Below the pieces are notes generated by a model that had not been told where the DNA came from, searched no databases, and saw nothing but the letters and a program-made list of their open reading frames with translations. Positions 1-53,157 of a stretch of 64,000 nt of DNA are shown in pieces. Each line of letters starts with the position of its first letter. The stretch's first letter is position 1. A program made the translations under genes and the position numbers. The stretch is from a virus. The DNA is taken from the IMG/VR virus record IMGVR_UViG_3300018424_005577, positions 1 to 64,000 of that record. The stretch is one strand, 5' to 3'.

Positions 1-713
1 ATTCCGTTGTAGAGCTTTTTGAGTTGGTCTTCTGTGTATCCGTCAACCACTCTTGAGGCGGTTGGATCGGACTGAGGCTTGAGAGTGACATTAATACCTC
101 TGGCATGGAAATATAAGGCGTTGTCCCAGTCTCGTTCAAAGTTTTCTGGAACCATGACCATATTGATCGTAACTTGTACATCATGTTCTTGACATAGGAT
201 GAGTTTATTTGCAAACTCTTCCATCCTTTCAGTTGTATTTACATGTTCTGTGTGTAAACTAGCTGTAATAGAGGCTCTATGAAATGGCTTTGCACGTTCT
301 ACATAATCTTCAAACCATTTCATAGAGCGCGAACAGTTTGATGTCATGTGTATACTTGTGTAATTTGTGTTTTCTACATCATCTGCTAAATGCTTTAGTA
401 TATCGAGGTATCCAGGATGGAAAGTAGGTTCTCCTCCTGACAAGGAGAAGTGAAAAGAATTGAAGCCGTTGAGTCTGGCTTGACGTTTAATTTCATCCAC
501 TGTAAGCAAGCAGAGCTCGGTAGGACGATGGTCTTTACGGTCGCTTCTTGCGTAAGGCCAGCAGTAGGAGCATCTGTAATTGCAGAATCTACCAAGTAGC
601 CATGATACTGTAAATATATCACGATAAAGCAAAGTACGTTGACCAACACCGACAATATCGTTAAATGGGATCTTAGTGAAATCATAATTACTCCATTTTA
701 AATCTTCAGTCAT
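1..713 (-). CDS. Radical SAM protein, 3' end truncated by window edge (not in the ORF track)
   Basis: Manual translation from ATG 713: MTEDLKWSNYDF...FTVSWLLGRFCNYRCSYC...SLSGGEPTFHP...MTSN..., open to position 1. Has CxxxCxxC and GGEP; paralog of 3593..4780. Confidence 0.9.
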   Translation of the reverse strand, partial: MTEDLKWSNYDFTKIPFNDIVGVGQRTLLYRDIFTVSWLLGRFCNYRCSYCWPYARSDRKDHRPTELCLLTVDEIKRQARLNGFNSFHFSLSGGEPTFHPGYLDILKHLADDVENTNYTSIHMTSNCSRSMKWFEDYVERAKPFHRASITASLHTEHVNTTERMEEFANKLILCQEHDVQVTINMVMVPENFERDWDNALYFHARGINVTLKPQSDPTASRVVDGYTEDQLKKLYNG

Positions 714-718
714 AATTT

Positions 719-747
719 AGTATACTACCTTTAATTAAATATGTCAA
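719..747 (-). promoter_or_regulatory. Sigma70-type promoter TTGACA-17-TATACT, probably giving a leaderless mRNA
   Basis: TTGACA at 747-742, TATACT at 724-719, 17-bp spacer; ATG at 713 lies only 5 nt past the -10 box. Confidence 0.75.
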
Positions 748-1965
748 CTAACTTTGCAACCAATCTACTATGTTGCTATGTAAATAATCTTTGTAATTTT
801 GTTGCCTTGATTTATCAAACAATCCTACTTCTAATAACGCTTTAGCCTTATCGCATTTATTACGTAATACGGCATCATCTATTAAGTTAACTAACTTTTC
901 TGTGTCTTGATTCAATTTAAGTATATCTGTAAGAGCATCTTCTAAAATATCTACAGGCAAATGCTTTAATGCAACACCTCTATCAAAAGGATAAACTTCA
1001 GCCCAATGTACAATAGCTTCACAAGGTAAACTATGACACCATTCTATAAAATCAGGAATATTGTAAATATTGTATAGCATAGGAATAAAACTTATATGTA
1101 TATGTCTAGGCTTACAAGCGTCTATATATTTGCGTAAACTGCTATCAAGTTGCTTCCATGACATAGGATGTCTTATATATTCGTATACTTTTCCATGTCC
1201 GTCTATGCTAAAATTTAAATTAGTTTTAAACTCTTTCAGCATAGAACAAATTTCGTCGTCAAACAGTGTCCCGTTTGTATGAAATTCTAATTGTATATTT
1301 TTACTGTTACCTTCATCAATTGCTTTTTGTAAAAATTTAATTACATGAGGATTGTAAAAAGGCTCACCGCCTGCAAGTTTTAGGATGCTAAATTTGTCAG
1401 TGTTATTATGAATCCAATGCCATTGCTTTACATTGTCCATTTTCCAACTATGCGGAGACACTGCCCATCTACCATCTACTGCCTTGTCTATAGACGGAAT
1501 AAGTCCTTCTTTTTTAAAAAAATTTGTATCTTTTTTTAGTTGACTAGATGCAGACGGATCGCACATTCTACATCTAAGGTTACACGAATTATTTACATGT
1601 GTATCAATAATTTCTAGTTTAGGATTGTCAGCAAGTTTTTGTGCTTCGTCGTCATCTACTTGGGCGTCTTGACGGAAACTCTTTACACCTCTATCTTCCA
1701 TCTCCCAACATACTTTACATGCACTATCTCTTATACCATTTTTTAAATTTTGTCTTAGTTTTTCCATTCTAGGATGGTTAAACATTTCTAATGGCGTTAA
1801 CTGGCTTACATCTCCTTCAATTTGTAGCACATTACTATCTTGATGTACATCGTTACCCATCATACAACAAGGCCAAAAAGTTCTCAATGAACCGTCGGCT
1901 TCAAAAGTTTTAGGCGCAACTTGAGAAAATGGATGAACGCAAAAAGTAGACTTATCAATTGACAT
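748..1965 (-). CDS. N-terminal twitch-domain radical SAM protein
   Basis: N-terminal CVHPF...PCC...CKVC, then CNLRCRMC, AGGEPF, HTNGT, SIDG. Confidence 0.9.
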   Translation of the reverse strand: MSIDKSTFCVHPFSQVAPKTFEADGSLRTFWPCCMMGNDVHQDSNVLQIEGDVSQLTPLEMFNHPRMEKLRQNLKNGIRDSACKVCWEMEDRGVKSFRQDAQVDDDEAQKLADNPKLEIIDTHVNNSCNLRCRMCDPSASSQLKKDTNFFKKEGLIPSIDKAVDGRWAVSPHSWKMDNVKQWHWIHNNTDKFSILKLAGGEPFYNPHVIKFLQKAIDEGNSKNIQLEFHTNGTLFDDEICSMLKEFKTNLNFSIDGHGKVYEYIRHPMSWKQLDSSLRKYIDACKPRHIHISFIPMLYNIYNIPDFIEWCHSLPCEAIVHWAEVYPFDRGVALKHLPVDILEDALTDILKLNQDTEKLVNLIDDAVLRNKCDKAKALLEVGLFDKSRQQNYKDYLHSNIVDWLQS

Positions 1966-3055
1966 GTATATCTTCCTCTATCAAGTGATATAATTCTTTA
2001 TTCAGTGTTGACCAGTGTTCATTTCTTAGTTGATTTAATTTCGTATCCATGTGTAAAAACTTTTTAAAATCACCAGATTGTTTAAGTTCGTCTACAATAA
2101 GTTTGTATATAGGTTGATCCTTAAACTTGTATTTTTCAATGTAAATGTTTTTTACATGATCAGGTAGATGTCTTGGCATCATCCAATCAGGTCCGTCTGC
2201 CATTACATATTTTTGATTTATATCTAAAGATTTACAAAAGTCCATTAGTTCATGCACTTTATTAATGTTGTATATACTAGCAACGCTATGTACACTAGGA
2301 TTAGCACCTTGCTCTTTAAACCAAAGTATATTAGATTTTACTTCGTCCCATTTACTGCCTTTACGCAAAAAATCATTTAATGGACCATAGCTATCAACAC
2401 TTAATTTTACACTTAGTTTACCTACTTCTTTAAGTAGTTCTAATAGCTCGCCTTGCGGCCTGATTGTAGTATTAGTAATTAATAGTAATGTTAGATTAGG
2501 TCTATCGCATTTTTTAAGTAAATCAATAAGTTTTTGCTCTTCCATTAAAGGTTCGCCACCTAGTAATTTTATAAATCTTAATTCGCTAAGATCATATTCG
2601 TCAAGAATTGTGTTTTCTGCAATTATACCACTGTGTTTTATACCTAATTTCTTAGCATCACTATACCAACTAGTACTAAGTTCAGGGCCGCACATTCTAC
2701 ACTTGTTATTACAAACATTACTAAATGTTAGATCTATGTTTGTTAGTTTAGGCACCTTGCCTCGGCCTTCTTCAGGAAATCCAAAATTTTGTACTTTGTT
2801 CATATCTAGCCGCATACTATGGCCGCTAGTTTTTTCATCTGCATAGCATCTGCTACAACCTTCTATGTATTCATCATTAAGCATTTTTTGCCTAATTTCT
2901 TTAAGAAAAGGATGATTAAAAGGATCTTTATGCTTTACAGTCAAATCATCAGGTGTTTCTTCCCATCTAAAATAACAGCAAGGAAATACTCTACCATCTG
3001 GTCTAGTTGCAATATGATGGAATGGAAGATCGCAACTATGTTTGCGTTTAGTCAT
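1955..3055 (-). CDS. N-terminal twitch-domain radical SAM protein
   Basis: CDLPF...PCC...CSRC, then CNNKCRMC, LGGEPL, SVD. Confidence 0.9.
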   Translation of the reverse strand: MTKRKHSCDLPFHHIATRPDGRVFPCCYFRWEETPDDLTVKHKDPFNHPFLKEIRQKMLNDEYIEGCSRCYADEKTSGHSMRLDMNKVQNFGFPEEGRGKVPKLTNIDLTFSNVCNNKCRMCGPELSTSWYSDAKKLGIKHSGIIAENTILDEYDLSELRFIKLLGGEPLMEEQKLIDLLKKCDRPNLTLLLITNTTIRPQGELLELLKEVGKLSVKLSVDSYGPLNDFLRKGSKWDEVKSNILWFKEQGANPSVHSVASIYNINKVHELMDFCKSLDINQKYVMADGPDWMMPRHLPDHVKNIYIEKYKFKDQPIYKLIVDELKQSGDFKKFLHMDTKLNQLRNEHWSTLNKELYHLIEEDIHVN

Positions 3056-3590
3056 TCAAAAATCCCGATACTTGCATAGTATACTTAGGTGAAAGTCCTG
3101 CATTAGCACTTAAATGCAAATGATCGCTATCCCAAATAAAACCATCTCCTGCCTTCCAATGAGTGCTTGTCTGCCATTCCTTATTATGATCTTCATAATT
3201 AATAAAATGTCCAGGCTTCCAATCCTCTAAGTATATATTTGCACGTACTTTTTTTCTTGTATCGTTAGGATACTTTTTGTTTATTTGGAAAAAAGTATCT
3301 CTATGCAATGTAATTACATTTCCAGGAGGTTGTAAAATTGTGCTAAGAGTAACTACTTCTATGCCAAGTTGTTCTCCTATTAATTTGTAATCAACATCGC
3401 CGTCGTCCCACCATAGTTGTTGTATTCTAGTATTATCTTCGTGATAGCTTTCTGGAAACCCTTTGCCATATTTTTCGTGAAGATCTTCTTGTTCACGTTT
3501 TTGATAACTTATACAACTGCCATAATGCTGAGAATAATCAGCACTTAAAAATTTATCCAAGTTATAATTAAAATTTATATGTTCTATCAT
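3048..3590 (-). CDS. 2OG-Fe(II) oxygenase / Asp-Asn beta-hydroxylase-like cupin
   Basis: PPGNVITLHRD (HxD) and WKAGDGFIWDSDHLHLSAN (distal His) in a double-stranded beta-helix pattern. Confidence 0.7.
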   Translation of the reverse strand: MIEHINFNYNLDKFLSADYSQHYGSCISYQKREQEDLHEKYGKGFPESYHEDNTRIQQLWWDDGDVDYKLIGEQLGIEVVTLSTILQPPGNVITLHRDTFFQINKKYPNDTRKKVRANIYLEDWKPGHFINYEDHNKEWQTSTHWKAGDGFIWDSDHLHLSANAGLSPKYTMQVSGFLND

Positions 3591-3592
3591 GG

Positions 3593-4780
3593 TTATTCCT
3601 TTACTAACGGTGCAAGTACTTCGGTCCTAAAATGTCCTTTAGCAACGTCTATATAATTTTCTTTATATTTACTTTTAGGCGCACACAACCCGCAACCGCA
3701 GGTATGTTTAGGACACGTAATTGTCGGCATAGTACCACTTTTTAATTTTTCTTTTAATTCAGCAATAATTTTTTTGCCTTCACTTATTTTTCCTATTGCA
3801 CCTCTTGTTCCGTCAAATCGTGCTTGACAAGTTTGATGATGGAACACACTATCAGTTTGCTGTTCTAAATGTAGGAAAAACCAATTAACACTACAACTCC
3901 AACCTTTAAATTCTCTAAGATCTACAAATGTGCTTTTGCGACTTTCACCATTGTTACTAAGACACATTGTCCTACTACCGCAACAAGGTCTTCCTATTGT
4001 CATTCCTAGTTTTTTCTTTTCTGTAGTTTTTTCGCCAGCGGCACTTAACACTGCTGTTTCTTCTTGATCTTTTTGTTTTTTGTTTAATCTAGCATTTCTA
4101 TATTCCCAATAATTTTTCATATAGTCTAACTGCTCTTCAGTGTATGTATGAGCAAAGTTACTTCTGCTATCTGGCTCTTCTCCAATTATACGAGGTACAT
4201 ATTTTACTTCATGTTCGTCTAAAAACTCACACAAATCTTTGCACTCGTCAAAGTATGCCGCATGGAACATTACATTAACACTGACAGTAAAATTATTTGC
4301 AGGACCTTCAGTATGAAATTGTAGTATTCTATCTCTGACCTGTTGTTTTAGTTTGTTGTCACTTTCTGCATGATAGCTCACTGTAGCATGGCCAAAATTT
4401 TGCATAACTGCATCTGCCATTTTTTTACTCATTGCGCCATTAGTAGTGAGGGCAAACCCGCACTGCCATTTGTCTGCATATTTTTCGTCATACTGACTTT
4501 TCAAATATTGAGCAAACGGAATAAAATTGGGATTAACTGTAGGTTCTCCGCCGGTAAATCCTATATTTGCCTCTTTAAAAAGTCTATGTTGCATATAAGT
4601 GTCTATATATTCAAACAAGAAATCGGTATTATTTTTAAGTTCTTCTAAACTAGCATGTTTACTAAAATTATCATGCCTATGTGCTGGACAGTAACTACAG
4701 TCATAATTACAACGTCTGCCTGTATCCCATGTAACTTGAAAAACTTTGCCTGTTAGTAAGTCTATTGTATCAAAACTCAT
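3593..4780 (-). CDS. Radical SAM protein with Cys-rich C-terminal auxiliary cluster region
   Basis: CNYDCSYC, TGGEPT, TTNG; C-terminal PCC...C...C...C...CPKHTCGCGLC. Confidence 0.9.
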   Translation of the reverse strand: MSFDTIDLLTGKVFQVTWDTGRRCNYDCSYCPAHRHDNFSKHASLEELKNNTDFLFEYIDTYMQHRLFKEANIGFTGGEPTVNPNFIPFAQYLKSQYDEKYADKWQCGFALTTNGAMSKKMADAVMQNFGHATVSYHAESDNKLKQQVRDRILQFHTEGPANNFTVSVNVMFHAAYFDECKDLCEFLDEHEVKYVPRIIGEEPDSRSNFAHTYTEEQLDYMKNYWEYRNARLNKKQKDQEETAVLSAAGEKTTEKKKLGMTIGRPCCGSRTMCLSNNGESRKSTFVDLREFKGWSCSVNWFFLHLEQQTDSVFHHQTCQARFDGTRGAIGKISEGKKIIAELKEKLKSGTMPTITCPKHTCGCGLCAPKSKYKENYIDVAKGHFRTEVLAPLVKE

Positions 4781-6089
4781 TTAAATATTCCTTGAATGCA
4801 GGTTCTACTTCTGTTAAATTTTCGCCGCGTATAGCGTCTAAACGCTTCGTGTAGCGTTGGAATTCTTCCCAATGGGTGTTGTAGTAACTGTCACTATTCA
4901 TATACGTACACACACCGTTTGCAATGTCTTGTGCCTGCTTAACTACATGCTCATTAAAATTTTTATCCTTGGTCCATTGCACAAATTCTTCAAATCTTTT
5001 GGTTAATTTTTCTTTTGCTTCATCTGGCAACACTCTAATATTTAAGTGTTGAGGATGATGAGCAACATGATGTGTGACTATCGGACGCCTGGTTGTGCTA
5101 TTAATTTTATTAAAGTTGCTCTCTGTAAGTTTCCATTTCATAAAGTCAATCATATGATTAACATTATATGCTGTAACTGTAAATGCTAACCAACCAATTA
5201 TATTGCTGGGCATGTTATCTAGTGTAAGTAAGTTTTTATACAACTTGTCCCATTTAGCAGGATGTCTCTGATATTCTATAACTTTGCCGTATCCGTCTAT
5301 ACTTGCTCCTACTCTAACCTGTTTAAAATTTTCCCATAGTTTTGCAACTCTAGGAGGTAGTGTACTCATATTAGTATTATATTCAATAATAATGTCTTTT
5401 GCAGAATCTTGATCAATACAACGTTGCAAAAAATCATAGTGTCGATCAATCAACATAGGCTCTCCGCCTGCAAAATATATGTGTCTAATATTGTTAATAT
5501 GTTTTTCTAAATATTCCCAAAAAGGTTCGTGATTAGGCCAATCATATTCACTAGCACAAAGTTTACCGTTTATTTGTTTTATTTCAATATCGCCACTTGT
5601 TTCTTTAAAAAAATTAGAACCAGTAAGTTTTATCCAATCATCATACCAAGCATTTGAATCAGTAGGTCCACACATACGACATTTTAAATTACAAAAATTG
5701 CCAAATCTAAGATCATAATATTTTACAGGAGTAGACGTTACATCTATAGTACCATCATCTTCTGTATCTTTTATTGCATCTTCTAATGTGTAATTCCATT
5801 GCTCTTGTTCATATTGCCGTCTACTGTTTAAGCCTGAAGTTTCTTCAGCTAAACAACGACCGCATTCTTTGTTCCATTTACCTTGAAGCATATTCAAACG
5901 CATTTCTTTCATTAGATCTGCATTACGAGCTTCGTCTAAGTCGTCGGATCCTGCATTGTATGCTGTGCCGTCTGCTTTGCGTATTACACCTCTATTTTTT
6001 GTTACGTTGGCTTGACAGCAAACACGTAGATCTCCGTTTGCTCTAGCGGCTTGAAATATCCAAGGTATAGGACAAAATGTATTAGCCAC
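4770..6089 (-). CDS. N-terminal twitch-domain radical SAM protein (start revised to GTG 6089)
   Basis: CPIPW...VCC...CGRC, then CNLKCRMC, AGGEPM, YNTN, SIDG. GTG at 6089 overlaps the upstream stop as other genes in the operon do and aligns with paralog starts. Confidence 0.88.
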   Translation of the reverse strand: MANTFCPIPWIFQAARANGDLRVCCQANVTKNRGVIRKADGTAYNAGSDDLDEARNADLMKEMRLNMLQGKWNKECGRCLAEETSGLNSRRQYEQEQWNYTLEDAIKDTEDDGTIDVTSTPVKYYDLRFGNFCNLKCRMCGPTDSNAWYDDWIKLTGSNFFKETSGDIEIKQINGKLCASEYDWPNHEPFWEYLEKHINNIRHIYFAGGEPMLIDRHYDFLQRCIDQDSAKDIIIEYNTNMSTLPPRVAKLWENFKQVRVGASIDGYGKVIEYQRHPAKWDKLYKNLLTLDNMPSNIIGWLAFTVTAYNVNHMIDFMKWKLTESNFNKINSTTRRPIVTHHVAHHPQHLNIRVLPDEAKEKLTKRFEEFVQWTKDKNFNEHVVKQAQDIANGVCTYMNSDSYYNTHWEEFQRYTKRLDAIRGENLTEVEPAFKEYLNEF

Positions 6090-6906
6090 GATCAATTTCC
6101 CTAATAGTTTCTTGCAGTCTATCTTCGGCCCATTGCCTTTCTTCACACCACCAACACTGTTTGCACAAAGGAATGTCCATTCCATCTTTATAATCTTTGA
6201 AATGGCCACATGCTCTTTTTATAATTTCGTGTTGCTCTATATCGCCTTCACAACTACGAGTAATGTAGTACAACTCGTCTATACCGTAGATAAAATATTG
6301 TGCTACTATCCAATCTTTTTTAACAAATCGAAAAGGATGGGCAAGATATGCATCTTCTTTTTTACCGTATCTCCATACATCTTCAAGTACTCCGTCCTCT
6401 GCGTCTTTATCTCTATTTGTCATTCTATCAGCACGGGTTGCATCTGGATTTTTACTAGTAGCATTATAAACTGCATTTAAATTATTTTGCCAGGCAGCGA
6501 ATCTATTAAAACTTCCTACAATAATCTGATCTCCGCTTCTGCCATTTACAATAGGTCCTATAGCACCGTGTTCTAATTCAGGCGGAATATAATTTGTAAT
6601 TCTGTCAGTTATAATTTTAGGAAATCTGCTTTTTAACCAATTGTATACTTGTATGCTTACATAACCTTGCCAAGGTCTTGTTTCCCAACACCGTTGATAT
6701 GTTATTGCAGTCACAGTACAATCTGATTTATGTTTTTCAATAATAGAACAAATAAAGAAAGTTAACAACGCACTATCGGCACCTCCACTTAAATTAACAC
6801 CAACTTTTTTCCATGAAGGATCAAAAACAATTTTTAAATTACTAAAAGTTTCTACTATTTTATCTTGTGTAATTGTTTCATATAATTTGTTATTAATTTC
6901 AAACAT
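6082..6906 (-). CDS. QueC-like PP-loop ATPase (adenine nucleotide alpha-hydrolase fold)
   Basis: VNLSGGADS PP-loop and C-terminal TRSCE...CKQCWWCEER zinc-site pattern typical of the QueC family. Confidence 0.75.
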   Translation of the reverse strand: MFEINNKLYETITQDKIVETFSNLKIVFDPSWKKVGVNLSGGADSALLTFFICSIIEKHKSDCTVTAITYQRCWETRPWQGYVSIQVYNWLKSRFPKIITDRITNYIPPELEHGAIGPIVNGRSGDQIIVGSFNRFAAWQNNLNAVYNATSKNPDATRADRMTNRDKDAEDGVLEDVWRYGKKEDAYLAHPFRFVKKDWIVAQYFIYGIDELYYITRSCEGDIEQHEIIKRACGHFKDYKDGMDIPLCKQCWWCEERQWAEDRLQETIREIDRG

Positions 6907-8248
6907 TGAGATTCCTTATAATATTATTGCCGGTAAATTTATAATTAACCATATGATCGTTAAAATTTTGTTTCCAAATTTCATCAGTTTTTCTAATGTA
7001 TACCATAAATGCTTCCCATTCACTTTCAGAAACATTATTGTTTAACACATAATGTTCTAAAAAGTCTAAACCTTTTAATGCAGTTTCTATATCAGAAAAA
7101 CTTGCTCCTTGTGTATTAGGTCTATAAGATGCTCTATTCTTATAGTTGTCTAAATTATCTAAACGTTTTTGCCTTTCATTAAGAATTGCTTCTCTTGTTT
7201 CTGCAAAGTCTTCTATTACATAATGTTTAAATTTTAAATTCATTAACGCCGGATTCATATATTTAGGTGTATACACAATAGAACTATCTATAAAGTTTAC
7301 ATCTAATTCCATAAACGATTCGAAAACATTTTTAATATCCATTATCTGGTATGCACTTGTAGTACAAACAATATTAAGTTCTGTTTCTTTATCTATACGT
7401 CTAAATATGTCGATATTTCTTTTTAATGTTTGCCAGTTGCCTGTTCTAAAATATCCATAAATATTTTTTCCTGCATCAACACTAACATGTATAATTGTCC
7501 TATTAAATGGTTTAAGTAATTTACTAAGTAATACAGGATCAAATCTAGCATTAAAATTTGAATGGAAGGAAATTTTTATATTGGCCGCATTAGGATGAGC
7601 CGCTAATAATTTTAAACAAGGAAAAAATTGCTTTTGATATAAAACTTCACCTCCGGAAAAATCTACCTTCATTATATTAGGAAAATTATTTTGCAGATCA
7701 TTAATAATTTCTTCCATTTGTGAAATATCAATAGATATAGATAGATCTACATCTTGATCTGTTTTATGAAATTCTCTAGTTAGTTGTATAAGTTTATGTT
7801 TTCTATCTTCTTCATCTGAAGTATATCTTTTTAATTTGCTCATCCATCCTGACGAATAGACGTCTGAACAATGTAGGCAAGACATATTACAACTATTACT
7901 GAACCTAAGTTCTATATGTTTTACAGATGCAAAATCTATTTCACCAGTTTGTTCATTATAAAGATCTAAATCAACCACTTCATCAAGCATATAATCAAAG
8001 TCTTGCCGCATACTATGGCTACCAATTGCTTCGGCATCTTTACACAAATGACACCCTGGACTCCAAGTACCAGACATCATTTCCTTACGATGCTTACGAA
8101 ACCCTTCACTATTAATTACATCAGAAGGCTTTAAAGTAGTATTTGTAATATCACATAACCTGTCAGATTGCTGAGGACAACTAGTTACAAAACCATTTTT
8201 GTAATTTATTCCTCCTAATGTATAGGGACAAATAATTTTTTCAGCCAT
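6899..8248 (-). CDS. N-terminal twitch-domain radical SAM protein
   Basis: CPYT...SCP...CHLC, then CNMSCLHC, SGGEV, SVD. Confidence 0.88.
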   Translation of the reverse strand: MAEKIICPYTLGGINYKNGFVTSCPQQSDRLCDITNTTLKPSDVINSEGFRKHRKEMMSGTWSPGCHLCKDAEAIGSHSMRQDFDYMLDEVVDLDLYNEQTGEIDFASVKHIELRFSNSCNMSCLHCSDVYSSGWMSKLKRYTSDEEDRKHKLIQLTREFHKTDQDVDLSISIDISQMEEIINDLQNNFPNIMKVDFSGGEVLYQKQFFPCLKLLAAHPNAANIKISFHSNFNARFDPVLLSKLLKPFNRTIIHVSVDAGKNIYGYFRTGNWQTLKRNIDIFRRIDKETELNIVCTTSAYQIMDIKNVFESFMELDVNFIDSSIVYTPKYMNPALMNLKFKHYVIEDFAETREAILNERQKRLDNLDNYKNRASYRPNTQGASFSDIETALKGLDFLEHYVLNNNVSESEWEAFMVYIRKTDEIWKQNFNDHMVNYKFTGNNIIRNLNV

Positions 8249-9641: not shown

Positions 9642-9653
9642 ACTTATACTTAC

Positions 9654-10718
9654 CTAATTAACTACGTAGTTTATTTCGTTATGATATGCTTTGTTTTTTG
9701 CACAAGTTTTTATGCATCTAGGCAAATGCATACCGTGATATGGATGCCAACTTGCTTTTAGTAATTTTTGATACCACGGATGCTTCATAACTTCTTGTAT
9801 AGAATGAACTTTCAAACTATTCCAGTTAGGATCGAAGTTAGAAAGTTTGTCTAATATACCTTCTTTATTTTTAAAAGCACTATCCCAGAGAAAACAACAA
9901 GGCCACATAGTTAAATCGCTGGCAATAAATATTTCTCCTTCGTGAATGTACTTACAAACAATACTATCAGTAATTTCTTTTATCTTAGATTCATCTACTT
10001 TAGTGTTTTGATATTCTTCAATAAACTTGTCTAATTCTTTTACTGTTTTTACTTTGCTGTGTTCTTTTTCGCCGGTTGTTGTAATAGTTTTCTTTTCTTC
10101 TACAATTTTTTTATTTTGTTTTCTTTTTAATGTAGCTACCCAATCGTCATAACTATTACGCATACCTGTTCTAGTAGCAAATTTAAAACCTAATTCTTTG
10201 GCATGCTGTTTTGCAATTTCTAATTCGTGTTCATTATGATCAAAAACAATGTATATCCAAGACGCATTTTCTTTTGGTGCAACAGACGAAAATGCTTGCA
10301 TGTTTCTTTCAATAACATCAAATTTAGTGTTAACTCTGTAAATATGATTAGTTTCTTTATGTCCGTCTACACAAAAATGTATATGCAATCTGCCAGGATA
10401 ATCATTTGCTATTGCACCTAAACTTTTCCACCATTGTGCAGTTTGATAGCCACCGTTTGTACTAAGTTCGCAATACGCTCCGTTGGTCACTAGATAATCC
10501 ACCATCTTGACGCATTCTACATTAAGAGCCGGATCACCTAAAACTCCGCAAAATTTAAATTCTTTGCCACGTATGTCTGCTTCAGTAGGAAACAATCTTA
10601 CAATATCATGAAAGTTAAAACTATTAATTTTTAACCTATCACTATTAAGTGTTCTAGCACATCCTGGACACGCCGCATTGCAGTTACTTGTAATTTCTAA
10701 TTCAATTTTGTTTATCAT
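9654..10718 (-). CDS. Radical SAM protein with C-terminal twitch/SPASM region
   Basis: ELEITSNCNAACPGC, GDP, STNGG; C-terminal C...PCC...CIKTC. Confidence 0.9.
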   Translation of the reverse strand: MINKIELEITSNCNAACPGCARTLNSDRLKINSFNFHDIVRLFPTEADIRGKEFKFCGVLGDPALNVECVKMVDYLVTNGAYCELSTNGGYQTAQWWKSLGAIANDYPGRLHIHFCVDGHKETNHIYRVNTKFDVIERNMQAFSSVAPKENASWIYIVFDHNEHELEIAKQHAKELGFKFATRTGMRNSYDDWVATLKRKQNKKIVEEKKTITTTGEKEHSKVKTVKELDKFIEEYQNTKVDESKIKEITDSIVCKYIHEGEIFIASDLTMWPCCFLWDSAFKNKEGILDKLSNFDPNWNSLKVHSIQEVMKHPWYQKLLKASWHPYHGMHLPRCIKTCAKNKAYHNEINYVVN

Positions 10719-11800
10719 TTAAATTGTTCCGCATATGGATCAAACTCAGTTCCGCACTTCATTGCACAGACACCTAACTTTCCATTTTGTATTCCTTGTA
10801 TAGACCAACTGTCTTGTATTCCTTTCAGTAAAGTTCCTTGCATTACTTGTTCAAGATCATTGTTTATAATATCTATACCTTCCTTTCCGCCTGCTGAGTC
10901 AATATGATCCCAAATCTGTTCTACCCTTGGATCAGGATGCCACCATTTATACATACGTCCGGCAGTCCAACAACAAGGCATTAACAAGCCTTCGGCTGTT
11001 ACAAATATACTACCTTGTTCAGCAACTTTACATTTTACAGAACAGGTATCATAGTACTTTTGCATACTGCCGTATGTGTTAGTTATTTCTTCTTCTTTAA
11101 GCAAAGCTAAATTAATATTTTTTGTATCTTTAGGTTTTGCTAAATTTTGTGTTTGTTCTCCCTTTCTGTTCACTGCTTGGTGCGTTTCTTTTCCAGAAAG
11201 TTGCGAAGTGCTGTAAAATCTGCCTGTCTTTTTTCTTACAAATTTTTCAAAACCCATACTGTTCGCTATTTCTTCTGCACGATCAACTTGATGTTCGTTA
11301 TGTTCAAAAACTATAAAATCCCAGCGAGCTCTACCGCCGGCGGCAATAAATGCCTTAGCACTTCGTTCTACATTATCCCAAACAACATTCTGCCTGTATA
11401 GGTGATTAGTATCCCTAAGGCCATCCACGCTAAAAATAACAGCACCCATTCTACCAAAAACTTGGGCAAGTTCAGTCCACCATGCTTCATCTTTTGCTCC
11501 TGCATTTGTATTCATACTCAACCACATTTTAGGGTTATGTTCTCTAAAATATTTGAAAACTTCTAGTGTATCTTTAGCAACAATAGGATCGCCTAAGTTG
11601 CCACACATATACATTGTGTTAAGTTGTTTAATAAAGTCTGGTTTAAAAATACGTTTACAATCTTCAAGACTTAACTCTGCATTTGTTATGTGAGGATTAT
11701 CTGTGCCGCCATTACAATTTCTATCACACATAGGGCAGGCCGCTTGACAACGTTGTGTAATTTCTAAATGTACTTCTTTAATGTTTTCGTATCTATACAT
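10715..11800 (-). CDS. Radical SAM protein with C-terminal twitch/SPASM region
   Basis: HLEITQRCQAACPMC, GNLGDP, NTNAG; C-terminal C...PCC...CAMKC; paralog of 9654..10718. Confidence 0.9.
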   Translation of the reverse strand: MYRYENIKEVHLEITQRCQAACPMCDRNCNGGTDNPHITNAELSLEDCKRIFKPDFIKQLNTMYMCGNLGDPIVAKDTLEVFKYFREHNPKMWLSMNTNAGAKDEAWWTELAQVFGRMGAVIFSVDGLRDTNHLYRQNVVWDNVERSAKAFIAAGGRARWDFIVFEHNEHQVDRAEEIANSMGFEKFVRKKTGRFYSTSQLSGKETHQAVNRKGEQTQNLAKPKDTKNINLALLKEEEITNTYGSMQKYYDTCSVKCKVAEQGSIFVTAEGLLMPCCWTAGRMYKWWHPDPRVEQIWDHIDSAGGKEGIDIINNDLEQVMQGTLLKGIQDSWSIQGIQNGKLGVCAMKCGTEFDPYAEQFK

Positions 11801-12017
11801 CGTGTACTAACTTTACATCTTTTCCTGGGCCAACTTTACTAGGCAAATCACCATATTGAGCAACATACCAGAGAATTACTGCTTTGTACCAGTTATGACT
11901 ATTATGATGTGCTTCTTTGTTAAATTGTGTAATATTATTACTTGTTGCTTGCATGGTGCTTAATGCCCTTGCACTTTCTAATTGAAGTTCTCTGACTGTA
12001 AATTTATCTAATTCCAA
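11793..12017 (-). CDS. Small hypothetical protein (74 aa)
   Basis: Overlaps both neighbouring genes, consistent with translational coupling; no recognisable motif. Confidence 0.7.
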   Translation of the reverse strand: MELDKFTVRELQLESARALSTMQATSNNITQFNKEAHHNSHNWYKAVILWYVAQYGDLPSKVGPGKDVKLVHDV

Positions 12018-13047
12018 TTTTCATAAACCTCTTATATTTTTCTAAGTCTAACACACCTTCAAACAAAACTTGCTTCATCGGTGTTTCATCCGAAAACTCT
12101 TTAAGACTAGATTTACAATTAATATGTTCTTCGATATCAAAGTAATTATTTGTCTGCAATACAACTAAGGTGCCACTTTGTAATTTTTCATACCAATCAC
12201 TAAAATTAGGTATATGTTCACAACTTGTGTTAATAACTGTAGTAGGACTATCAGACATATTAGATAGTTGTCCTTCTTTGTTTATTGTTTGATAGTTATA
12301 ATTTTTATAATCTATATCAAATATATTTTTTGTTGTTGCTTTAAATTTCCAATCTTGTACTAACCAACTTTTATTAAAGACTTCTGCTATGTCGGCACAA
12401 CTAGGATCTATGTCAAAACTTCTAATTTTTGATATATGTAAATTACTTTCAAACAACATAGTTGCTAGTGTACCGTACCAACCAGCACATAAAAATACTG
12501 TGCCTAGTGATCTATTAATTTTTTGAAGTTCGTCTACTAACCATATTTTACTTTTAAGTTGTCCTCTACTAAAACAATCATTATCTATCTCTATACTATC
12601 TGCTAAAATTCTTTTAAAGGCTTGAGTAAAGTCAGTTTGAACAAATCTGTCAAATATATCAAACAGTTTCCAAATGTTATCTTCAAGTACAAGTTTACGA
12701 ACATCTTCGTCGTATATAAATCTAAATATGCTGTAAAGATTTTCGCCTATTACAGCCTTTCTTAATTCTACATTATCAACAAGTCTAAAAATACTGTGTA
12801 AATTATTTTCTAATATTGCTTTACGTAAATCATCAGCTTCGCCTTTTACTGTAACATCTCCAATAACACGAAACAAACTGTGTAGATTTTTTTCTACAAC
12901 TGCTTTACGTAGTTCTTCATTTGCATTAGTGACACGAAATATACTATTAAGGTCTTTATCTATATAGGCACGCCTTAGATTTGATATATTTGTGTCGTTT
13001 GGATACAGCAACTCATATCTATCTAGCAGTTCATGAATTTCTAGCAT
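12004..13047 (-). CDS. Class I SAM-dependent methyltransferase-like protein with N-terminal helical repeats
   Basis: LCAGWYG (motif I-like), SFDIDP, VINTSCEH; N-terminus has five LRKAxxExNLxSxFR-like repeats. Confidence 0.7.
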   Translation of the reverse strand: MLEIHELLDRYELLYPNDTNISNLRRAYIDKDLNSIFRVTNANEELRKAVVEKNLHSLFRVIGDVTVKGEADDLRKAILENNLHSIFRLVDNVELRKAVIGENLYSIFRFIYDEDVRKLVLEDNIWKLFDIFDRFVQTDFTQAFKRILADSIEIDNDCFSRGQLKSKIWLVDELQKINRSLGTVFLCAGWYGTLATMLFESNLHISKIRSFDIDPSCADIAEVFNKSWLVQDWKFKATTKNIFDIDYKNYNYQTINKEGQLSNMSDSPTTVINTSCEHIPNFSDWYEKLQSGTLVVLQTNNYFDIEEHINCKSSLKEFSDETPMKQVLFEGVLDLEKYKRFMKIGIR

Positions 13048-14638
13048 TAAATTGTTCCTTCAACCAATCAAAGTTGTTAATTTTTTTGAGAGCTTCAATA
13101 TCACCTCTGTTACTTTCACCGTATTTTCTGCCGGCTCTTGCACCGTCAGTTACATAATTACCAAATGGCTCGTCCTTGCCTTTATCACTACACCATATAT
13201 TTAGACGTAATTCCGTTTCGACATCCTTTTGTCTATCTATAACTTTGCTTGATAATTTGCAACATTCTCTAAAGCCACTTTTCCAAGCACTAAACGGGTC
13301 TGTATTAAACTCGGTACTATTAGAAACTTCTTTTACCGCTTTAAAATGTCTACTTATACTTGTAGTCATATCCGGTTTAGATGTATCCATTTCTATTGTT
13401 GCTATCCTTGGAAATAATTTTACTCCGCCGTAGCCATATTCTAAACCTTTTACTTTGTTTTCACATCGCCAAACATGAACGTGATCTTTTTCCTTAGCTG
13501 GCACCACATAATCAAAATTAAAATCATCATTTATAACTGCGTCTCCATCTACAATCCATATCATATCTGTACTACACTGTTTTGCCGCTTCAATATGTGC
13601 TTGATGGATTCCTTTTATCCCATGAACACGTTTTGCACGAGGAAATCTTTTAATTAAATTTTCATAGTTTTTGTCTGCGTTAACTTCATTGTAACTGATA
13701 AACACAATATCGTATTCTTCATTAGAAATACTTGAACTATTAGATATATTTTTGTAGCTAGATCGCTCTTGATTAATGTAAACAGTTTTAAAGAACTTGC
13801 TTTGATCTTCATCTAATGGTTCAACAGCTATAGGCAAATCTAATTCTTCTTTTAATTGAAATCCAAGATCTTCTATTGGACTATCTACGAATGAAAAGTC
13901 CTTATTATTCCAATATTCATTCAGCCATTTAAAATCACGCACATTTACAAAGTTCCAATCTGTACACATAGTTTTGTACAAACCTTCTCTTGCACCATAT
14001 ATTGCCCATTTACCGTTTTCTACGTCTGCACCTACCATTAACCATACATAAAGTCTGTGCAAGTTTTTCCAATGTAAACCTTTTAGTCTTTCTTTAGAAA
14101 CTTTTTGTCCTTCATTTAGTGCCATTTTAACACCTTCGCGGAATCCTGCTCTCCAGGCTTGTTGAGGTGTAGCATTATTCATAATAGTACTATATGTTCC
14201 AGGCAAATGATAATAATTTATATCCCAACAAAAGTCTACCTGTGCTTGTAGGTTATCAGGGGCGGCGTTTTCATGTGTTTTCATGTTTAGTATTATACTT
14301 TTAGGCCAACACTTTATTCCGCCGTTGCCATAAACTAATCCGTTGATGTTATTTTTTGCAGTAAAACTTATAACGGTTTTGTAAGGATTAAAATCATTGC
14401 CTAATACAAATTCTTGATTAATAAAATCTTGATTTACTATATTGTCGCCGTCTACAATAATTAATCTATCAGTTTCACTAATATTTGCACATGCTTTATG
14501 CGCCGCATCACTACCTTCAACACCATGAACACGTTTTGCCCAAGGAATTTTTTTGCATAAATCTGCATAATTCTTTTCTGCGTTTGGCTCGTCATACGAC
14601 AAGTATATTACATCACAGTCTGGTACTCTAAGTTTCAT
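13031..14638 (-). CDS. Glycosyltransferase with two tandem GT-A-like domains
   Basis: Both halves carry DxxxxSYxExNAxKNY, AKRVHG, AH, VDGD (DxD), GGxK and AWxxGFRE. Confidence 0.75.
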   Translation of the reverse strand: MKLRVPDCDVIYLSYDEPNAEKNYADLCKKIPWAKRVHGVEGSDAAHKACANISETDRLIIVDGDNIVNQDFINQEFVLGNDFNPYKTVISFTAKNNINGLVYGNGGIKCWPKSIILNMKTHENAAPDNLQAQVDFCWDINYYHLPGTYSTIMNNATPQQAWRAGFREGVKMALNEGQKVSKERLKGLHWKNLHRLYVWLMVGADVENGKWAIYGAREGLYKTMCTDWNFVNVRDFKWLNEYWNNKDFSFVDSPIEDLGFQLKEELDLPIAVEPLDEDQSKFFKTVYINQERSSYKNISNSSSISNEEYDIVFISYNEVNADKNYENLIKRFPRAKRVHGIKGIHQAHIEAAKQCSTDMIWIVDGDAVINDDFNFDYVVPAKEKDHVHVWRCENKVKGLEYGYGGVKLFPRIATIEMDTSKPDMTTSISRHFKAVKEVSNSTEFNTDPFSAWKSGFRECCKLSSKVIDRQKDVETELRLNIWCSDKGKDEPFGNYVTDGARAGRKYGESNRGDIEALKKINNFDWLKEQFNARNS

Positions 14639-15197
14639 TTTTTACTCTAAATCCGTAGTCTTTAAAACGCTTAGGCGTATAGATACTTAACTTTGTAAGA
14701 TTGCACTCGTCGTCAGTTGTGAACGGAATCTCAATTACACCAGTTTCACATAGTTCTTCTATGTCTACACGTAGTAATCTATACAATATGTTTAGATCAC
14801 CATGTTTAGTAACACTAAAATTTAATGTTTCACCTACAAACATGCCTTTCATGTTAGTACACAATTCATCTGAAAGAATAATTCGCCAAACTTTAGTTGT
14901 ATTATCCTTTTCTATAGTGCAATCTTTGTTACTATACGAATAAGGAATGCTATGATGGAAATCATTAATATCAAATGTAGTTTTATTAATAGAATCTGTT
15001 TCTTTTAACTCAAATTTTTTCGTTTCAGGATTATAAATTACCCTAAAATTGTTTTTTGATACTTTACCTTCAAGGATAGGTCCGGCTATTTCATATGGAA
15101 CTTGTATTTGCGAAGGAGCATCAATAGGAGGTGCGCCGATTTGCTTGATTTTACCAGTTTTTTTATCGAACCCTAGTGCAATATTACCCTTGTACAT
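14628..15197 (-). CDS. Hypothetical protein
   Basis: 189-aa ORF overlapping both neighbours within the operon. Confidence 0.7.
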   Translation of the reverse strand: MYKGNIALGFDKKTGKIKQIGAPPIDAPSQIQVPYEIAGPILEGKVSKNNFRVIYNPETKKFELKETDSINKTTFDINDFHHSIPYSYSNKDCTIEKDNTTKVWRIILSDELCTNMKGMFVGETLNFSVTKHGDLNILYRLLRVDIEELCETGVIEIPFTTDDECNLTKLSIYTPKRFKDYGFRVKNET

Positions 15198-15993
15198 CTT
15201 CGAACTTCCTAATTATATCCTCATTAACAAAACTATTATCTGTATAATGAAAAACAGTGTGTTGAGCATGATTTCCTATTTTTAAATTTGCATCATCATC
15301 TACAAAAACGCTTACTCTTGTTGACCAATTATCACTATACTTTTCCCAATTTTGTATTGCAGGTTTCATATGTACTAAATTAGGCATAATGTTATTTTTT
15401 TGTCTAATATCTAATACAATATGGGTAATTGCTGTAATGATATCCATGCTAGGTTCTTTAGGCATGTTCTTAGGGCAGAATATCCTGTAGTATTCTTGCC
15501 AATTATCAGCTATATGTTTTTGCGTAGTATAAAACTGTTTTGAATATTTGCTTTTTTTAAAGTAGAAAAATGCGTTATAAACGTTAGGTAAATTATTACT
15601 AATAAATGCTTTCCTGTAAAACGTATCTTTTATTTTCTCGCCCCTATATGTAAAGACAGTATCACAATAATAAACATCAGTATTCATTGCTTGCCAGAAA
15701 TAATCTAAATTATGCAATACTAATACATCACTATCCATTGAAATTGTTTCTTCGTAAGGAGACAGTTCATAGATAAACTGTCTAGCATAGGTTTTAAATC
15801 TACTATTATCGCCATTGTATGTAGGTACAGGAATTATTTTATCAAAAATATACTTGTAATTTGCTACATCAGTATTAGTAATTAGGCTTACTGGAATATG
15901 TTGATTAAATTTTTTTATACTTAATGCACACAGATATGCTTGTTGTATATATTGCTCACCTTCGGCATACAATACAAATCCTTTATTACTCAT
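15184..15993 (-). CDS. GT-A fold glycosyltransferase (GT8/nucleotide-diphospho-sugar transferase-like)
   Basis: YIQQAYLCALSIK, PVSLIT, SPYEETISMDSD (DxD), HY near the C-terminus. Confidence 0.75.
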   Translation of the reverse strand: MSNKGFVLYAEGEQYIQQAYLCALSIKKFNQHIPVSLITNTDVANYKYIFDKIIPVPTYNGDNSRFKTYARQFIYELSPYEETISMDSDVLVLHNLDYFWQAMNTDVYYCDTVFTYRGEKIKDTFYRKAFISNNLPNVYNAFFYFKKSKYSKQFYTTQKHIADNWQEYYRIFCPKNMPKEPSMDIITAITHIVLDIRQKNNIMPNLVHMKPAIQNWEKYSDNWSTRVSVFVDDDANLKIGNHAQHTVFHYTDNSFVNEDIIRKFEDVQG

Positions 15994-16816
15994 CTATACA
16001 CCTCTGTAGACTAAATTTATTCATTACATGCACATTAGCGTTTTTTATCGATAATGGAGTATATTGATTTTTATAGGTTGGCTTTTCTAATAAAAACTTT
16101 AAGTTATTTTCTTGCACTTTATACAAAATGCTTTTGTCTGTGATATAATATAAAGTTCCGGGCATTTCTTTTGCAAAATCGCCTGCTTGAAATCCATTCA
16201 TAATATGAATAGCAATACTAAATGCATAGTCATTACGGAATTTTAATGATTCGATAAAATATGTAATTCTATAATGTTGATAATTTTCTTGTATATGTTT
16301 TAATAAATCAAAGAAAATTTTGTTAGAATAAACTTTTCTAAAAAACACACATGTAGCCCAGTAAAAATCTATACTTATATCTGATATTCTTTCGAACTCG
16401 ATACCTGTTGTCATGTCTACTAGATTATGACATTGTTTGTATATTAAAAAATTATTGGATTGATTAAAACATTGTAAAAAATTATTGTTGCAAATTACAA
16501 CGTCAGTGTCTAACATTAAAGTTTCGTCGTAAGGAGTAAGCTCATATGCAAGGCTACGAGAATTATTCTTCCATAAAGACTTTACTGAATTACCTGAACC
16601 GTCATAGTGTGTTTTAAAATTGTTATCTACAGTATTTTCTAAGATAATAACTTTATCAAATGCAGATAAATCTGCATCTTCACAACTTTCTTTGTCTGTT
16701 ACCAAAGATACTGGTAAATCTAAATGCTGTTTTGCACGTTTAGCAAGGTCTTTTGCTTGTGAAATATAATTTAATGTATTGCTATTTCTGGCAAACACTA
16801 AGATGCCTTTACTCAT
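15986..16816 (-). CDS. GT-A fold glycosyltransferase, paralog of 15184..15993
   Basis: PVSLVTD, TPYDETLMLDTD (DxD), FRNDYAFS, HVMNK. Confidence 0.75.
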   Translation of the reverse strand: MSKGILVFARNSNTLNYISQAKDLAKRAKQHLDLPVSLVTDKESCEDADLSAFDKVIILENTVDNNFKTHYDGSGNSVKSLWKNNSRSLAYELTPYDETLMLDTDVVICNNNFLQCFNQSNNFLIYKQCHNLVDMTTGIEFERISDISIDFYWATCVFFRKVYSNKIFFDLLKHIQENYQHYRITYFIESLKFRNDYAFSIAIHIMNGFQAGDFAKEMPGTLYYITDKSILYKVQENNLKFLLEKPTYKNQYTPLSIKNANVHVMNKFSLQRCIDE

Positions 16817-17156
16817 CGTCTACTAGTTTCTCTACACTTCTGCTATTTTTTATGTTTTGATATTCTTGATAATATATACGTAGATTCTCGTCATATTTTT
16901 TTGCAATTTCTGCAAGAAAACCTGTAACATCTTCGACTAGAATTGGAATACTGTTATCATCTAGTAAGATTGCATTATTAGTTACATTAGATAATGCAGA
17001 CAAATGACTCATTAATGACGTTTCAATTGTAAATTGCCCGCCCCCATAATAGTATTTTGTGTTTTCTTTAAATTGTTCTAACAATATACGCCTTTGATTA
17101 TTAAGCGTTACCATATAATTTGAAAAATCTAAAGCATTTTTTAACTTTTCATCCAT
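16809..17156 (-). CDS. Hypothetical protein, first gene of the modification operon
   Basis: 115-aa ORF with an AGGAG Shine-Dalgarno, directly downstream of a consensus promoter. Confidence 0.8.
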   Translation of the reverse strand: MDEKLKNALDFSNYMVTLNNQRRILLEQFKENTKYYYGGGQFTIETSLMSHLSALSNVTNNAILLDDNSIPILVEDVTGFLAEIAKKYDENLRIYYQEYQNIKNSRSVEKLVDDE

Positions 17157-18343: not shown

Positions 18344-18351
18344 TATTTATA
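18344..18351 (-). promoter_or_regulatory. T4-type late promoter TATAAATA
   Basis: Exact T4 gp55 consensus, overlapping the upstream stop codon, about 30 nt before ATG 18315. Confidence 0.75.
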
Positions 18352-19861: not shown

Positions 19862-19886
19862 GTTGTTCGATTCCTATTAACTACTG

Positions 19887-19894
19887 TATTTATT
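19887..19894 (-). promoter_or_regulatory. Late promoter variant AATAAATA
   Basis: TAAATA core in the intergenic gap about 25 nt upstream of ATG 19861. Confidence 0.6.
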
Positions 19895-19906
19895 CCTATT
19901 TTCAAT

Positions 19907-20365: not shown

Positions 20366-20372
20366 ATTTTTC

Positions 20373-21345: not shown

Positions 21346-21347
21346 AA

Positions 21348-23159: not shown

Positions 23160-23180
23160 GCCTAACCCTATCTATATTGG

Positions 23181-23188
23181 TATTTATC
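23181..23188 (-). promoter_or_regulatory. Late promoter variant GATAAATA
   Basis: TAAATA core, intergenic, 21 nt before ATG 23159. Confidence 0.6.
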
Positions 23189-23192
23189 GGAT

Positions 23193-27748: not shown

Positions 27749-27756
27749 TATTTATC
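27749..27756 (-). promoter_or_regulatory. Late promoter variant GATAAATA
   Basis: Overlaps the stop codon of the giant gene, 17 nt before ATG 27731. Confidence 0.6.
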
Positions 27757-53149: not shown

Positions 53150-53157
53150 TATTTAGT
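53150..53157 (-). promoter_or_regulatory. Late promoter variant ACTAAATA for the baseplate operon
   Basis: TAAATA core 20 nt upstream of ATG 53129, followed by an AGGAG Shine-Dalgarno. Confidence 0.65.

Follow-up and report, generated by a model that had tools for sequence, protein, structure and literature searches.

The window analyzed here is the first 64 kb of the 101.9-kb linear IMG/VR record IMGVR_UViG_3300018424_005577, from an uncultured marine giant phage, and the genes in question form an island at positions 1-17156 of this window that encodes radical S-adenosylmethionine (SAM) enzymes together with glycosyltransferases and a methyltransferase-like protein, a candidate pathway for building and tailoring a glycan. 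The island contains 18 genes, all located on the minus strand: the 17 long open reading frames (ORFs) of the program-made listing and an overlooked conserved gene for a 74-residue protein, termed sp74. Consecutive genes overlap by 4-17 nt, except that gaps of 12, 2 and 34 nt separate g10 from g9, g5 from g4 and g2 from g1, respectively. Base 1 of the contig is also the start of the window, so that g1 is cut to 237 of about 371-395 residues. Relatives have at least three additional radical SAM genes beyond g1, and the island continues past the contig edge. A hydrophobic segment of membrane-span strength is detected in none of the 19 proteins scanned (those of g1-g18 and sp74). All island proteins are predicted to be soluble, and the pathway would hence be cytoplasmic. 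Recent insertion of the island from a foreign source is rejected, because its GC content (31-35%) resembles that of the remaining window. The features are listed in Table 1. Relatives of g9 are present in 327 IMG/VR stretches, and the numbers of phage loci given in the table and below refer to the best 80 of these 327.

Table 1. Island genes and adjoining features, in window coordinates
Feature	Position	Strand	Description
g1	3..713	-	Radical SAM, group C, g5 paralogue; core; C-terminus lost at contig end; PF04055 E 1.8e-15; CNYRCSYC
sigma70-like promoter	719..747	-	TTGACA-17-TATACT, one mismatch; in the 34-nt gap upstream of g1
g2	748..1965	-	Radical SAM, predicted N-terminal twitch; NF033640 238.7 bits
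g3	1955..3055	-	Radical SAM, predicted N-terminal twitch; NF033640 241.8 bits
g4	3048..3590	-	180-residue soluble protein; H96-x-D98...H159
g5	3593..4780	-	Radical SAM, group C; SPASM-like Cys-rich C-terminal region; PF04055 E 8e-10
g6	4770..6095	-	Radical SAM, predicted N-terminal twitch; NF033640 376.5 bits; ORF open back to 6209
g7	6082..6906	-	PP-loop ATP pyrophosphatase, QueC-like; four-Cys site
g8	6899..8248	-	Radical SAM, predicted N-terminal twitch; NF033640 209.7 bits
g9	8241..9641	-	Radical SAM, predicted N-terminal twitch; NF033640 419.1 bits; core; most conserved island gene
g10	9654..10718	-	Radical SAM, group B, g11 paralogue (blastp E 2e-35); C-terminal Cys motifs; PF04055 19.6 bits; phrog_21308 (radical SAM) E 2e-16
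g11	10715..11800	-	Radical SAM, group B; core; PF04055 31.1 bits; in 74 of 80 phage loci
sp74	11793..12017	-	Conserved 74-residue soluble protein; TTG start, AAGAGG Shine-Dalgarno; fills apparent 200-nt g12-g11 gap
g12	12004..13047	-	Helical-repeat N-terminal domain and class I SAM-dependent methyltransferase fold; core
g13	13031..14638	-	Tandem GT-A glycosyltransferase, two DxD domains; core
g14	14628..15197	-	189 residues, function unassigned; conserved in 16 loci; no Pfam, PHROG or PDB match
g15	15184..15993	-	GT8-like GT-A glycosyltransferase; invariant D87-x-D89
g16	15986..16816	-	GT8-like GT-A glycosyltransferase; g15 paralogue (blastp E 5e-12)
g17	16809..17156	-	115 residues, function unassigned; first gene of unit; conserved in 14 loci; no family match (Pfam, PHROG)
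g18	17212..18315	-	Acidic, 367 residues; between fibres and island; island membership uncertain

Radical SAM enzymes and their partners

The CxxxCxxC motif is found in nine island proteins (g1, g2, g3, g5, g6, g8, g9, g10 and g11), and all nine match PF04055, seven of them above the Pfam cut-off. The two that fall below it, g8 (26.4 bits) and g10, are counted as radical SAM proteins, because g8 passes the NF033640 cut-off and g10 is a clear paralogue of g11. All-against-all BLAST separates the nine into three old paralogue groups: group A (g2, g3, g6, g8 and g9), group B (g10 and g11) and group C (g1 and g5). NF033640 is the NCBIfam model N_Twi_rSAM (398 positions, curated cut-off 170 bits). 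The five group A proteins all pass this cut-off, with matches that extend over the whole model, and g1, g5, g10 and g11 fall short of it. Four Cys residues N-terminal to CxxxCxxC (C10, C28, C91 and C94 in the numbering of g9) are invariant in eight aligned NF033640 members. Group A proteins are therefore predicted to contain an N-terminal twitch domain, in which the Cys ligands of an auxiliary cluster are arranged ahead of the core. In groups B and C, it is the C-terminal region that is rich in Cys; the Cys residues of g5, for example, are located at 266, 267, 273, 296, 318, 356, 361, 363 and 366. The next-best NCBIfam matches of the nine proteins are peptide maturases. None of 14 control genomes contains a protein that passes the NF033640 cut-off, which rules out the identity of these enzymes with a housekeeping family. 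A search of the whole 101.9-kb record for radical SAM genes outside the island finds none.

The members of the three groups differ in distribution. Orthologues of g1 with 77-89% identity are present in 34 phage loci, and a full-length one (L003:16521-17636) encodes 371 residues. An orthologue of g2 at 45% identity or more is found in none of the 80 loci, and g3 has 447 metagenomic relatives at E 1e-5 or better. The g9 family is mostly viral in the ESM Atlas. The NF033640 match of g6 begins at residue 43 of the long ORF, and translation of g6 probably starts at TTG 6095 or GTG 6089, not at 6209, as judged from the sequence around the g7 stop.

The glycosyltransferases (GTs) are encoded by the promoter-proximal genes. 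The g13 protein contains an internal repeat with one DGD motif (IDGDN and VDGDA) in each GT-A domain. Its AlphaFold2 model (pLDDT, predicted local distance difference test score, 85.5) has two GT-A domains, and the best structural matches in PDB are the two-domain glycan polymerases K4CP (E 2.7e-7), Mimivirus R699 and LARGE1; a GT of phage Che8 and many multi-GT proteins of giant viruses are also among the structural matches. A profile of 16 g15/g16 homologues matches glycogenin in PDB at E 2e-6, in its nucleotide-binding half only, and the C-terminal half remains unmatched. In the AlphaFold2 model of g12 (pLDDT 90.5), residues ~150-347 match NodS, RebM and Coq5 (Foldseek against PDB, probability 1.0), so that the predicted methyltransferase fold is nearest to those of sugar and Nod-factor methyltransferases. 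In g7, SGGxDS and four Cys residues (C219, C248, C251 and C254, in the arrangement C...CxxCxxC) are invariant in 14 homologues. The PP-loop matches of g7 in PDB and NCBIfam are weak, QueC models stay below significance for g7 itself, and a neighbour family of the cellular loci described below weakly matches the Pfam family QueC (PF06508). Sequence and profile searches of PDB give nothing useful for g12, g13, g14, g4, g11 and full-length g1.

The g4 protein has no match in Pfam, PHROG or, by sequence or profile, PDB. Its H96-x-D98...H159 pattern is invariant in 13 homologues, and it is possibly a small Fe(II)/2-oxoglutarate-type or cupin oxygenase. In 14 relatives, the slot of g4 is held by a gene encoding a 184-residue protein like a short-chain dehydrogenase/reductase (SDR). 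The two genes are not the same, because they have the position in common and no similarity. The g4 family has 781 metagenomic relatives with 65-84% identity, and none lies at a distance of 10 kb or less from g9 in the 80 loci. To judge from these sequences, g4 looks like a widespread marine phage gene inserted in place of the SDR-like gene.

The sp74 gene is present in 68 of the 80 phage loci, always between g12 and g11. The protein is conserved along its whole length and contains aromatic-x-Lys motifs; it has neither Cys nor a division into leader and core. In cellular loci, not even a profile search detects it, with the sole exception of L082, a probable mis-binned phage contig, and the ESM Atlas yields no match. 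One metagenomic protein (P0242) is an in-frame fusion of sp74 with a g11 orthologue, which could be a frameshift artefact, because it is seen on a single contig. The sp74 protein may be an accessory subunit or, less likely, a peptide substrate.

A preliminary description of this stretch, made from its letters and ORFs, had listed 18 co-oriented and mostly overlapping genes running past the window edge, nine CxxxCxxC radical SAM enzymes, four GT-A domains, a methyltransferase-like protein, a QueC-like ATPase and a 2-oxoglutarate-dependent oxygenase. This inventory is right except for the weak call on the oxygenase. The gene number holds with sp74 counted in, the truncation of g1 and the genes that follow it in relatives agree with the continuation of the cluster, and both motif and PF04055 identify the nine enzymes, which the family models resolve into three paralogue groups. 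The GT-A domains are the tandem pair of g13 and those of g15 and g16, the methyltransferase is the class I fold modelled for g12, and the ATPase is the PP-loop protein g7 with its two invariant motifs. For the oxygenase, g4, the invariant H-x-D...H pattern stands, and support from Pfam or PDB is lacking.

A perfect sigma70 consensus (TTGACA-17-TATAAT) is located at 17207-17179 on the minus strand, in the 55-nt gap directly upstream of g17. Only two such perfect sites are present in the 64 kb, and the second, at 53157-53185 on the plus strand, lies beyond the baseplate block, ahead of the gene at 53210. Consensus promoters recur in relatives: g17 leads the island behind such a site in 10 loci and g13 does so in 19, and 11 loci have an additional site upstream of g1. 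Close to the island, an exact late-type TATAAATA box is found just once, at 18344-18351, in front of g18 and beside the fibre genes. By analogy with T4-type regulation, the island is probably an early unit, transcribed by the host polymerase apart from the late fibre genes. The operon had been described as directly abutting the tail-fibre genes; its position behind the fibres is retained, and with a sigma70 promoter of its own it is more than an extension of the fibre operon. Homologues of g18, which lies between the two, are present in 12 loci, duplicated in some and preceded by sigma70-like promoters in some.

Relatives in phages and in Bdellovibrionota

The identity of g9 across the 80 phage loci is 84-93%, and the gene content around it is highly variable. 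The most constant genes are g9, g11, g12, g1 and g13, and the presence of the other radical SAM genes varies. Five related records contain 8-16 radical SAM genes each. In five related records, the order of a baseplate gp6-like gene, a giant protein and fibre region, and the island is kept. All viral records compared are fragments. Fusions of g13 with g12 (~1000 residues) are found in 14 loci, and those of g7 with a radical SAM protein (~830 residues) in six. Across the 80 loci, no multi-span membrane protein family is detected besides one desaturase-like family. Other islands of the lineage add genes absent from the window, namely AMP-binding, nitroreductase-family and fatty-acid-desaturase-like genes (e.g. 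L008:1121-2110, L014:14857-15489 and L024:1216-1962).

No cultured phage matches the island by megablast, and no cultured phage with a close homologue was found. Distant paralogues with the N-terminal twitch region are present in cultured phages, four in Vibrio phages K566/K567 and one in Ralstonia phage RsoM2USA. The best cultured matches of the baseplate gp6-like protein are those of jumbo phages of the Rak2/Atu_ph07/SCTP-2 type (34-38% identity). CheckV estimates the completeness of the record at 28%, which would correspond to a genome of roughly 350 kb and fits this affinity. Between the baseplate and fibre genes lies a single ORF of 5368 residues (27752-43858, minus strand), which we take to be possibly the giant VrlC-like protein described for marine myophages. 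The region 18347-27112 (minus strand) encodes four consecutive fibre-like proteins with a common N-terminal module of ~90 residues (phrog_15511/phrog_14394) and different C-terminal parts.

A scan of one genome per prokaryotic species yields 77 cellular loci, nearly all in Bdellovibrionota. That these copies represent binned phage DNA is rejected, because many of them are located between housekeeping genes on chromosomal contigs of 0.5-3 Mb. The approximate identities to the window genes are 55-62% for g9, 58-70% for g1, 41-48% for g11, 38-46% for g13 and 30-44% for g12, and paralogues of the g6, g5, g10 and g7 types are present in addition. All three radical SAM groups occur in 31 of the 49 cellular loci of 15 kb or more, and 26 of these 31 also contain a GT or a methyltransferase. 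Single genomes carry 6-11 NF033640 members in islands of 25-36 kb. Sugar-pathway genes are interleaved with the radical SAM genes of these islands: UDP-glucose and GDP-mannose dehydrogenases, an NAD-dependent epimerase/dehydratase, a DegT aminotransferase, and GTs of families GT1, GT2 and GT28. A TagF-like enzyme, YrdC with a Kae1-type carbamoyltransferase, a polysaccharide lyase, and multi-span membrane proteins of the size of flippases or polymerases are also encoded there. In some Bdellovibrionales, g9 stands solitary among housekeeping genes. In a tree of g9, all phage copies fall into a single clade and those of bacteria cluster more or less by family, a pattern that favours a long presence in Bdellovibrionota and one origin for the phage set. 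The genes g13, g12, g9, g11 and g1 are predicted from these comparisons to be an ancient core common to the phages and Bdellovibrionota.

Several loci depart from this picture. The 13.5-kb contig CANEUJ010000032.1 (L082), labelled as part of a Neisseriaceae metagenome-assembled genome (MAG), carries a phage-type island (g9 76%, g11 69% and sp74 73% identity), and its g9 falls among the phage copies of the tree; the contig probably derives from a phage and was mis-assigned to the bacterial MAG. Orthologues of g9 with 55-59% identity are found in two MAGs of the candidate phyla radiation, one of Dojkabacteria (L117) and one of Parcubacteria (L123/L163-L164). In the Parcubacteria MAG, more than 12 radical SAM genes share a co-oriented operon of ~35 kb with genes for an aminotransferase and an aldo-keto reductase-ferredoxin and with GT1, GT28 and TagF-like genes. 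In two Bdellovibrio genomes (L112, 17254-21321, and L110), a 1355-residue Peptidase_S74 (fibre chaperone) protein is encoded ~6 kb from the g9 orthologue. No such gene is present in the other 75 loci, and a link to fibres in bacteria is rejected, because a fibre-like neighbour occurs in only these two of the 77.

Product of the pathway

The product of the island is most probably a glycan, assembled and then tailored by radical chemistry in the cytoplasm by enzymes that are expressed early; we infer the substrate class and every reaction, and estimate the probability of this interpretation at roughly 0.6. A functional linkage of the GTs, the methyltransferase and the radical SAM enzymes is suggested by the overlaps, which would couple their translation, and by the fusions of g13 with g12 and of g7 with a radical SAM protein. 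A glycan is suggested as the product by the enzyme families, this coupling, these fusions and the sugar-pathway neighbours of the cellular core homologues. Twitch radical SAM enzymes such as BtrN oxidize sugar-type alcohols. In the proposed pathway, g13, g15 and g16 would assemble an oligo- or polysaccharide from nucleotide sugars of the host on an acceptor facing the cytoplasm, g12 would methylate it, and g7 may activate a carboxylate, for example to convert a uronic acid to an amide or nitrile. Each of the at least nine SPASM/twitch radical SAM enzymes would abstract hydrogen at one particular position of a sugar, resulting in oxidation, epimerization, deoxygenation or cross-linking, and helper redox proteins (g4, or the SDR-like protein in its place in relatives) would finish these steps. 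The core would consist of one enzyme of each radical SAM group (g9, g11 and g1) with g13 and g12, and the other paralogues would be interchangeable cassettes that diversify the product. The preliminary description had proposed an uncharacterized multi-step pathway, most likely for an unusual glycan. This proposal is supported by the coupling, the fusions of GT and methyltransferase, the sugar-gene context in bacteria, and the linkage of the genes. The comparison of related contigs that it had suggested shows that this linkage is conserved in hundreds of loci and that the island stays behind the fibres in the five records in which the order is kept; the possibility that the enzymes belong to known housekeeping families, which it had also raised, is excluded by the control genomes.

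Several observations weigh against a glycan. A gene for sugar-nucleotide biosynthesis, an initiating transferase, a flippase or an exporter is found neither in the island nor in the 80 related phage loci. The best-known role of SPASM/twitch enzymes is peptide maturation, and the conserved ORF for sp74 is located directly upstream of the radical SAM run. The nitroreductase-, AMP-binding- and fatty-acid-desaturase-like genes of some relatives fit other chemistries. The sequence-level search of PDB is uninformative for g11 and gives no match for the full-length g1 orthologue, and we know of no tested function for NF033640 members or for proteins of groups B and C.

It is unlikely that the radical SAM enzymes mature a peptide or protein, as in the synthesis of ribosomally synthesized and post-translationally modified peptides (RiPPs), by cross-linking, epimerizing or otherwise modifying sp74 or a virion protein, which the GTs and the methyltransferase then decorate. 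The auxiliary-cluster Cys motifs of all nine enzymes, their next-best matches, and the nitroreductase-family genes of some relatives would suit such a maturation, as would the fact that all related records checked have the island behind the fibres. The position of sp74 directly upstream of g11 in most loci, its aromatic-x-Lys motifs and the fusion protein P0242 would suit it as well, but sp74 is uniformly conserved instead of being divided into leader and core, has no Cys, and is not encoded in those cellular loci that retain the three radical SAM core enzymes, and the lone fusion may be artefactual. Neither an RRE (RiPP recognition element)/PqqD domain nor a protease or transporter is found among the island proteins by Pfam, NCBIfam and the scan for membrane segments, and the genes next to the cellular homologues belong to sugar pathways. 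It is quite improbable that the pathway yields a diffusible small molecule (such as a cofactor, or a metabolite resembling an aminoglycoside or a nucleoside) that is made during infection and attached to no macromolecule. The enzymes are all soluble and no acceptor-specific or export component accompanies them; AMP-binding and nitroreductase-like genes occur in relatives, as do pairs of a radical SAM and an SDR-like gene, which recall the sugar deoxygenation of the AprD4/AprD3 type. However, the tandem GT-A protein of polymerase type and two more GTs point to a chain and not to a lone glycoside, and both the variation of cassettes beside the fibres and the multi-span membrane proteins of the cellular islands are more easily reconciled with a surface or structural glycan. 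A scaffold-forming enzyme (cyclase, nonribosomal peptide synthetase or polyketide synthase) is not seen.

Hypermodification of DNA, in which the early enzymes would build a modified base (of the deazapurine type, or glycosylated and methylated) against host restriction, is very unlikely. Phage GTs and radical SAM enzymes are known in the hypermodification of thymidine and cytidine, a sigma70-type promoter suits the early expression that DNA-modifying enzymes require, the enzymes are all soluble, g7 has the pattern of the QueC Zn site, and g1 gives weak matches to QueE models. The GTs are nevertheless of the GT-A/GT8 type and resemble glycan polymerases, the cellular homologues are located in polysaccharide-type islands of bacterial chromosomes, and the island maps to the structural and fibre region, not to replication genes. 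The only ThyA-like gene is canonical in score and far from the island. TGT/DpdA (tRNA-guanine transglycosylase type; PF01702) is absent from five records of the lineage (this contig and four relatives, ~640 kb), which is weak evidence, because all of them are fragments. DNA, which had been named as an alternative target, has gained no support from these results.

For the glycan, virion fibre proteins and a precursor of the host envelope glycan are about equally likely as the acceptor. The conserved position behind the fibre genes, the absence of export genes and the known examples of virion glycans made by viruses favour the fibres, and the early-type promoters and the polysaccharide-island context in bacteria favour the host envelope. 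The fibre proteins had been preferred as the target on account of adjacency. The order of baseplate gene, giant protein, fibres and island in five records speaks for this preference, and the early-type sigma70 promoters and the scarcity of fibre-like neighbours in Bdellovibrionota (2 of 77 loci) speak against it.

A broader proposal is tentative, and we consider it more doubtful than probable: the product may belong to an undescribed class of glycan, in which many C-H positions are rewritten by serial radical SAM enzymes and whose chemistry is common to jumbo phages and predatory Bdellovibrionota, and the swappable cassettes would generate diversity in a glycan that serves recognition or shielding, whether on fibres or on cell surfaces. 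If the glycan interpretation is correct, hundreds of aquatic jumbo phages and a phylum of predatory bacteria devote 15-40 kb each to a glycan pathway that relies on three uncharacterized radical SAM families, and many new enzyme reactions on sugars are to be expected. The product would be a new virus-made decoration, which may control host recognition, superinfection or evasion of defence, and a concrete function would be given to genes reported from marine phages since 2017, the 'radical SAM cassettes' and the Fe-S auxiliary genes. As a corollary of the broader proposal, these abundant marine jumbo phages would exchange genes with Bdellovibrionota or even infect them. Culturable carriers of the family are isolates of Bdellovibrio sp. 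and Vibrio phages K566/K567.

Comparison with known systems

BtrN and aminoglycoside tailoring enzymes resemble the island enzymes in that a radical SAM core is combined with an auxiliary 4Fe-4S domain, which is predicted for the island enzymes, near GTs and sugar-modifying genes. They differ in that no specific sequence relationship is detectable and that five of the nine island enzymes would have this domain at the N-terminus. In addition, the number of radical SAM enzymes (nine here and up to 16 in the relatives counted) is far above that of any characterized sugar pathway. For g13, the nearest systems are K4CP, LARGE1 and R699, its best structural matches, with which it shares two tandem GT-A domains and a DxD motif in each. 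The global TM-scores are, however, ~0.2 and the identities 9-12%, the polymerase activity of g13 is a prediction, and the fusion with a methyltransferase is seen in the relatives of g13. Virion glycosylation by the operons of mycobacteriophages of the Che8 type, by chloroviruses and by mimivirus likewise relies on soluble, virus-encoded GT-A enzymes beside structural genes. In contrast to the island, those systems contain no radical SAM enzymes, and the transcription of the island looks early, not late.

The likeness to NF033640 is closest in g2, g3, g6, g8 and g9, which match the whole model at 210-419 bits and contain the four N-terminal Cys residues together with CxxxCxxC. NF033640 is a catalogued family without a known function, whereas the island joins five diverged members of it to two other radical SAM groups. 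Nothing was found in the literature on NF033640 or on a Bdellovibrio cluster of radical SAM and GT genes, and radical SAM cassettes are mentioned there only in passing. A T4-like marine genome with 12 radical SAM genes has been described (Nishimura et al. 2017, PMC5332604). The host recognition cluster of pelagimyophages and cyanomyophages contains GTs of the GT8 type and 'radical SAM cassettes', and modification of the host O-chain has been proposed for it (Zaragoza-Solas et al. 2020, PMC7029224). Those papers mention the cassettes without analysis, and the phage described here is nearest to jumbo phages of the Rak2/Atu_ph07/SCTP-2 type by its baseplate protein. The host recognition cluster and the island are alike in being hypervariable blocks located by tail fibres, with GT8-type GTs and with radical SAM cassettes that differ between close relatives. 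The gene content of the island varies between loci in which g9 is 84-93% identical, and its place behind the fibres is kept.

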